Of a stretch of DNA of 64,000 bases, positions 3,097-3,183 are shown one piece after another. Under the pieces are notes generated by a model. That model was given only the letters and a program-made list of their open reading frames with translations, searched no databases and was not told where the DNA came from. A program made the translations under genes and the position numbers. Position 1 is the first letter of the stretch. Each line of letters begins with the position of its first letter. The DNA is from Escherichia coli (GTDB lineage: Bacteria > Pseudomonadota > Gammaproteobacteria > Enterobacterales > Enterobacteriaceae), in NCBI RefSeq assembly GCF_003334305.1, contig NZ_QOWS01000006.1. One strand, written 5' to 3'.

Positions 3097-3183
3097 GCCT
3101 GATGCGACGCTGACCGCGTCTTATCAGGCCTACAAAACGCACTACCCGTAGGTCGGATAAGGCGTTCACGCCGCATCCGACAG
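3097..3183. repeat. REP pair (BIME) between convergent yabI and thiQ
   Basis: gcctgatgcgacgctgaccgcgtcttatcaggcctac and the inverted copy gtaggtcggataaggcgttcacgccgcatccgaca match the REP consensus. Confidence 0.85.

Follow-up and report, generated by a model that had tools for sequence, protein, structure and literature searches.

REP and BIME elements are among the best-known bacterial repeats. The REP-associated tyrosine transposase (RayT/TnpA-REP), an enzyme that works on single-stranded DNA, makes REP elements and rearranges them, and they persist in intergenic DNA. REPs are extragenic sequences of 30-40 nt, present in many copies, that can fold as imperfect palindromes. The REP is defined by a conserved GTAG/CTAC tetranucleotide at the foot of its palindrome, and TnpA-REP binding requires the GTAG together with a stem mismatch; the K-12 total was given as 584 REPs (PMC3333891). 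Composite elements were classified here by the Bachellier/Gilson/Hofnung scheme, as summarised by Ton-Hoang et al. 2012 (PMC3333891), and with the drawing of BIME-2 in PMC6379681. In that scheme, BIME-1 consists of a Y and a Z1 REP with a long L linker bearing an IHF site, and BIME-2 joins a Y to a Z2 REP through a short S linker, has s, l or r at its flanks and usually forms tandem arrays (PMC3333891). At the RNA level, REP hairpins withstand 3′-to-5′ exonucleases, and many transcripts, among them some terminated by Rho, have such hairpins at their steady-state 3′ ends (Dar and Sorek 2018, PMC6061677).

The REP pair between yabI and thiQ

The element described here lies near the start of the window (the whole 64-kb stretch of DNA that was analysed), in the 113-nt intergenic gap (3077-3189) between yabI and thiQ, which contains both REPs entirely. 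The yabI gene (DedA family protein, 2312-3076, + strand) ends with the stop codon TAG at 3074-3076, and thiQ (thiamine transporter ATPase, last gene of the thiBPQ operon, 3190-3888, − strand) ends with the stop codon TAG at 3190-3192. A Z2-type REP (palindromic unit) of 37 nt occupies 3097-3133 on the + strand, where it is written GCC...CCTAC (pattern match GCCTGATGCGACGCTGACCGCGTCTTATCAGGCCTAC), and a Y-type REP of 34 nt, a GTCGG...CCGAC variant, occupies 3148-3181 on the − strand (pattern match GTCGGATGCGGCGTGAACGCCTTATCCGACCTAC). Their CTAC/GTAG ends point at each other (tail-to-tail) over a 14-nt linker of the short S type (3134-3147; AAAACGCACTACCC on the + strand and GGGUAGUGCGUUUU on the thiQ transcript), and an 8-nt flank (3182-3189, − strand) separates the thiQ stop codon from the Y REP. 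The Z2 REP is the first hairpin on the yabI transcript, 20 nt (3077-3096) past the yabI stop codon, and the Y REP is the first hairpin on the thiBPQ transcript, beginning 8 nt past the thiQ stop codon. Within the Z2 REP is ATCAGGCCTAC, the natural target sequence of IS621.

A first-pass annotation, made from the sequence alone, had placed an inverted REP/BIME pair at 3097-3183 between convergent yabI and thiQ. The REP pattern matches agreed with these coordinates to within two bases, and the convergent junction was borne out by the RefSeq annotation, which gives the same arrangement for this stretch in 5,397 complete E. coli genomes. The inverted pair, with Z2 on the + strand and Y on the − strand, was recovered by pattern, by published references and by covariance model. 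The window belongs to an E. coli strain other than K-12: its yabI-thiQ stretch is 100% identical to that of strain 1943 and ~96.5% identical to that of K-12 derivatives; K-12 MG1655 has the same gap, the sole differences being two bases of the Z2 loop. Since this kind of repeat is already known and the same element is present in K-12, there is nothing novel about the yabI-thiQ element. The last codon of yabI (3071-3073) is GGT (Gly) in this strain and GTT (Val) in K-12 (72,110-72,112) and in most other alleles sampled.

Membership in the REP family was determined by several searches. A mismatch-tolerant REP pattern gave four matches in the 64-kb window, namely the yabI-thiQ pair, 42391-42424 (−) and 42438-42474 (+), whereas 200 first-order Markov surrogates of the window averaged 0.1 matches and never gave more than 1. 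A covariance model (R1) was trained on 35 distinct REPs from five other 50-kb K-12 regions, which were aligned with the known hairpin imposed (96% paired; 29 cells with changes on both sides). With this model the Y REP at 3148-3181(−) scored 57.0 bits (E 3.7e-11) and the Z2 REP at 3097-3133(+) scored 47.6 bits (E 5.8e-9), and the 64-kb window held nothing else with E<1 beyond the pair at mutT-yacG. Compared with the Y and Z2 references that Durrant et al. 2024 give in their methods (PMC11208160), the + copy was identical to Z2 at 35/37 positions, with a loop one base longer, and the − copy was identical to Y at 32/35 positions. An IUPAC consensus with a fixed 4-nt loop gave no match with up to 3 mismatches because the loop of this Z2 copy exceeds that of the reference by one base. 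The first-pass annotation held that its REP assignment would fall if a consensus search found no match; matches were obtained with pattern, references and covariance model alike, and the assignment stood.

Both REPs are imperfect palindromes with 14-nt arms (86% complementary), both are terminated by CCTAC, and the GTAG/CTAC foot is present. A 1x1 C/U mismatch separates two stem segments in each copy (fold dot-bracket and model structure). The GTAG and stem mismatch reported to be needed for binding by the REP transposase (TnpA-REP/RayT) are thus present in both REPs. By megablast alone, the 87-nt element had matches at 10 places in the median E. coli genome, and 61 REPs were counted in a K-12 sample of 285 kb in seven stretches. 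No repeat features are annotated in the RefSeq K-12 tables, and Rfam is without a general REP family, naRNA4 being its sole matching family and falling below threshold at yabI-thiQ. With near certainty, the element is a known kind of E. coli intergenic repeat, a single Z2 + Y REP pair.

Elsewhere in the window, Rfam matches above the gathering score were the TPP riboswitch upstream of thiBPQ (6472-6571, −), SgrS (8328-8554, +), the leucine operon leader (14534-14683, −), PssrA (36185-36274, +), STnc40 (41921-41990, +) and tp2 (53746-53859, −).

Given that only a single Z2 REP and a single Y REP are present, the element was classified as a single BIME-2-type unit and not an array, and the E. 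coli alleles sampled at yabI-thiQ have one REP pair at most. A BIME-1 with an IHF site was also considered and was ruled out; the partner of the Y REP is a Z2 (35/37, longer stem), and the linker is 14 nt as against a long L. Most tail-to-tail Y/Z2 linkers in the 285-kb K-12 sample measure 12-17 nt, two being 33-35 nt long, and in most of them the sequence read from Y to Z2 opens with GG and closes with TTT. The yabI-thiQ linker in the same direction, GGGTAGTGCGTTTT, fits this loose pattern, by which a U-run regularly falls 12-17 nt past the Y hairpin on Y-sense RNA. The 8-nt flank on the head side of the Y REP pairs with the linker, much as in REP325 with its l-type linkers, but in a different register. 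In REP325 units, as at yabI-thiQ, GCAC…GUGC pairing joins the linker to the sequence ahead of the Y REP.

A sister element lies between mutT and yacG, with a Y REP at 42391-42424 (−) and a Z2 REP at 42438-42474 (+) arranged head-to-head over a 13-nt linker. The first-pass annotation had assigned both loci to the same REP family, and this was confirmed: the two loci have the same Y sequence, and a single loop base distinguishes their Z2 copies. Rfam naRNA4 (RF02564, the REP325 unit; gathering 59.5 bits) scored 78.4 bits, above threshold, on the mutT-yacG pair, whereas at yabI-thiQ it matched REP by REP at 37.1, 30.6 and 30.5 bits, below threshold, because naRNA4 models the head-to-head unit. 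There is one Y/Z2 pair at mutT-yacG here versus two in K-12 (111,430-111,620), which has 116 bp more. In this strain and in K-12, the REP overlaps the end of mutT, the TAG of its conserved GTAG foot doubling as the stop codon of that gene.

Variation and conservation of the junction

Within-species comparison was carried out on 5,426 complete E. coli genomes, about 85% of which have kept both REPs; the unique flank, Z2 REP and linker were found at ≥ 80% coverage in 4,259 genomes. Alleles were sampled at 60 evenly spaced rows of the ranking, 59 of them chromosomal. Among these 59 were 48 full-length alleles, 4 with a 12-nt deletion, 4 of O157 type, 2 replaced and 1 disrupted. The 12-nt deletion falls in the yabI-side flank and leaves both REPs intact. 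In the O157:H7-type allele, present in 354 of these 5,426 genomes, almost the whole of Z2 has gone through deletions of 24 nt and 3 nt (BB24-1, locus extract 795-815), and the allele retains the linker TGCGTTTTGT (with the U-run) and the whole Y REP beside thiQ. In MS 69-1-type strains, window positions 3085-3189 are replaced by an unrelated G+C-rich palindromic repeat (…GTTCCCCTCACCCTAACCCTCTCCCCGGAGGGGCGAGGGGGC…; locus extract 781-858). This replacement allele is found in about 3-5% of E. coli genomes, and its repeat, which occurs at 1-6 copies per genome, had no Rfam match; presumably it resembles the 'boxC' class of enterobacterial repeats.

An allele disrupted by IS621, an IS110-family element with a bridge-RNA recombinase, was also found. 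In strain C9 (NZ_CP010129.1) a 1,279-bp IS621 lies inside the Y REP (locus extract 3676-4954; window equivalent 3150/3151), having entered at the CT of that REP's CCTAC foot (target ATCCGACCT before and AC after the insertion point, − strand), and the CT/AG core is present at both junctions. IS621 targets REPs, with ATCAGGCCTAC as its natural target (PMC11208160). The C9 copy went into the Y REP though the neighbouring Z2 REP has that exact natural target. The junction query also matched IS621 copies in other REPs, and the presence of IS621 at yabI-thiQ is certain in strain C9 only.

Outside the main body of E. coli, both REPs were found at yabI-thiQ in E. albertii, in two cryptic Escherichia clades and in a divergent E. 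coli. One of the cryptic clades (MOD1-EC7003) has a deletion that removes the 5′ half of its Y REP; in the other Escherichia sampled, with the Y REP intact, it begins 8 nt past the thiQ stop codon, as here. In C. portucalensis and C. youngae ATCC 29220 the junction holds REPs of Citrobacter type, arranged as here around a similar linker, and in Citrobacter with a same-orientation REP this lies 6 nt from the thiQ stop codon (REP from position +7). The remaining REP-bearing Citrobacter, like S. enterica subsp. arizonae, carry either one REP or two joined by a different linker, and both orientations occur. No REP was found at the same junction in Citrobacter Awk 4, MGH106, Pseudenterobacter and Buttiauxella, in which thiQ and yabI nearly abut or overlap, and thiQ and yabI thus need no dedicated intergenic element. 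Because the pair is present in all Escherichia sampled and a similar pair is present in some Citrobacter, it is probably older than the genus. Given the REP-free relatives and the E. coli alleles in which it has been lost or replaced, it is dispensable for yabI and thiQ. On this distribution, the element is to be regarded as old and well kept in Escherichia, yet dispensable.

One metagenome-assembled genome, 'Citrobacter sp. HRGM_Genome_0066', has two thiQ-yabI loci, on contigs DXKH01000096 and DXKH01000071. One locus is of Escherichia type (ThiQ 97% identical, E. coli Y/Z2 pair, 8.4-kb contig) and the other is of Citrobacter type, and the bin looks mixed.

RNA structure and possible roles at the 3′ ends

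Two separate REP hairpins were predicted on both strands (-60.4 and -58.1 kcal/mol for 131 nt folded; z -5.7 and -4.8). Folding had been named in the first-pass annotation as a check, and in it each REP formed its own hairpin on both strands. A single long hairpin, in which Z2 pairs with the inverted Y, was not the predicted fold, both strands favouring separate hairpins.

The yabI (+) and thiBPQ (−) transcripts would each run into two very stable hairpins soon after the stop codon. The REP hairpins would halt 3′-to-5′ exonucleases, and in this way they may define and protect the mature 3′ ends of both mRNAs. Polymerase would be released farther downstream, probably by Rho, in C-rich, G-poor antisense sequence; the C/G ratios downstream of the element, taken as local values, are 1.66 and 1.84 across a 200-nt span and, within its first 50 nt, 2.4 and 6.7. 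A 3′-end barrier shared by the two mRNAs is the best reading because REP hairpins resist exonucleases and both transcripts meet two of them followed by C-rich sequence. We infer every functional step here, and consider it somewhat better than an even chance that such an RNA barrier would be the main local effect. The role of 'mRNA stabiliser' that the first-pass annotation had proposed is plausible, as it agrees with the published behaviour of REPs and with the stable hairpins predicted on both transcripts. The literature searched held no experiment or transcript map for the yabI-thiQ element, the two genes being named together only in a genome announcement, and neither yabI nor thiQ is mentioned in the supplementary text of PMC12306157 and PMC6379681. 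As a combined statement, that this is an ordinary REP pair which most likely protects mRNA 3′ ends and is not a classical terminator, the conclusion is held with good confidence.

The element may instead have no local function and be a neutral or selfish remnant of REP/BIME proliferation, tolerated between two gene ends. This explanation is the less favoured one, at a little under one chance in three, and it draws on much of the variation given above: presence/absence and copy-number variation within E. coli and across genera, the use of the locus as an IS621 landing site in strain C9, the substitution of an unrelated repeat in some strains, and a copy number that also differs between this strain and K-12 at the mutT-yacG element. 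Against it, the sequence, with its unique flank and its linker, is almost unchanged throughout Escherichia, the Y REP is retained even where Z2 has been lost, and exonucleases should be impeded by a REP hairpin wherever one is transcribed. The yabI-thiQ element matters little in itself. Its alleles provide a natural series for the effect of a REP pair on convergent mRNAs, with both REPs, Y only (O157:H7), a replacement, an IS621 disruption, or, in some Citrobacter and Buttiauxella, none.

Two further effects, both weaker and both on the thiQ side, might be added to the 3′-end barrier. The first is translational. According to Liang, Rudd and Deutscher 2015, as relayed in PMC12306157, REPs less than 16 nt from a stop codon, and only these, stall ribosomes and lower translation. 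The Y REP, 8 nt past the stop codon of thiQ, lies within that published distance; the effect itself was shown for other genes. At thiQ, the Y hairpin may hinder the terminating ribosome, keeping it from placing UAG in the A site and leading to stalling, cleavage and tmRNA tagging, so that ThiQ synthesis would be damped. The 8-nt distance is read from the sequence, and the same spacing is found in other Escherichia with an intact Y REP, with 6 nt in Citrobacter having the same orientation. The published rule covers about half of the REPs in the Liang study, so that agreement at thiQ is not specific, and relatives without a REP at the junction argue that damping is not required. Such a translational damper seems possible, although doubtful. 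At yabI the REP is 20 nt from the stop codon and lies outside the <16-nt rule.

The second effect concerns transcription. The first-pass annotation had taken the element for a probable terminator or mRNA stabiliser. The terminator part gained no support on the yabI strand, where a consensus terminator scan found no U-run past either hairpin, and weak support on the thiQ strand, where the same scan gave a weak terminator-like site in the linker. On the thiQ transcript, the flank AUGCACU pairs with linker AGUGCGU and lengthens the Y hairpin up to the U-run UUUUGU. The Y hairpin with this 7-bp flank-linker stem, followed by UUUUGU, could thus form a REP-embedded Rho-independent terminator of thiBPQ, and the extended hairpin and UUUU may directly terminate some transcription. 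The fold of 3134-3195(−) gives -25.8 kcal/mol for the extended hairpin, which stops at the U-run, but its z is only -2.8, an 8-nt asymmetric internal loop interrupts it, and the U-run is short, at four U, with the first one taken up into the stem. In 12 orthologues the flank-linker outer helix is 91% paired, with one compensatory change of an A-U to a G-C pair; this covariation is a single event common to two Citrobacter, and the structure was derived from one aligned sequence. The linker TTTT is invariant in 12/12 orthologous junctions, including O157 (without Z2) and the two Citrobacter, whereas other Citrobacter are without the U-run or without a REP.

The TTT end is general to S-type linkers at other loci, so that conservation of TTTT may be inheritance within the repeat family. 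With TTT in most S-type K-12 linkers and flank-linker pairing also present in REP325 units, the case for TTTT and the flank-linker stem as a locus-specific adaptation is weakened. An intrinsic terminator of thiBPQ is judged rather improbable, at about one chance in four. A stronger form, in which flank, Y REP and UUUU linker were co-opted together as the end of thiBPQ to serve as both Rho-independent terminator and brake on ThiQ, is held to be less probable again. If true, such co-option would account for the retention of Y REP, flank and U-run from Escherichia to some Citrobacter, and also in O157:H7, which has lost the Z2 partner.

A role at the DNA level was also weighed, in which the Y/Z2 pair would be a site of gyrase binding and cleavage that relieves positive supercoils between the convergent units. 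The element does sit at a convergent junction, and BIME-2 are enriched for gyrase cleavage sites, Y more than Z2 and independently of transcription (PMC6379681). According to that study the enrichment concerns 'a subset' of BIME-2, for the most part arrays of several copies like those at sucB-sucC and tldD-yhdP (PMC6379681), but yabI-thiQ has a single pair and the locus is not in the supplementary text of that study, and we consider a gyrase role unlikely. Finally, a chance palindrome outside the REP family, to which only the empty search with the fixed 4-nt-loop consensus could point, is already refuted and is given almost no weight, the loop length of that consensus being wrong, E being ~1e-9 to 1e-11 in R1, and 0.1 pattern matches being expected by chance.

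Comparison with described REP systems

Like BIME-2, the yabI-thiQ element has Z2 and Y in alternating orientation with a short S linker, is intergenic, and varies in copy number and sequence between strains; unlike BIME-2, for which tandem copies are typical, it has one Z2-S-Y unit. With BIME-1 it shares an inverted REP pair that includes a Y. The sister element at mutT-yacG is likewise at a convergent gene junction, but its REP heads face each other over 13 nt, whereas the REP tails face each other over 14 nt at yabI-thiQ. The thiQ strand resembles an intrinsic terminator in having a G+C-rich hairpin with a base that abuts a U-run; in contrast, the yabI strand is without a U-run, and the thiQ side has four U and a hairpin that is long and interrupted. 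REP mRNA stabilisers, for which malE-malF is the example (Newbury et al. 1987, as cited in PMC6061677), likewise have stable 3′ or intercistronic REP hairpins. The malE-malF stabiliser is intercistronic, whereas the yabI-thiQ element would serve two convergent transcripts.
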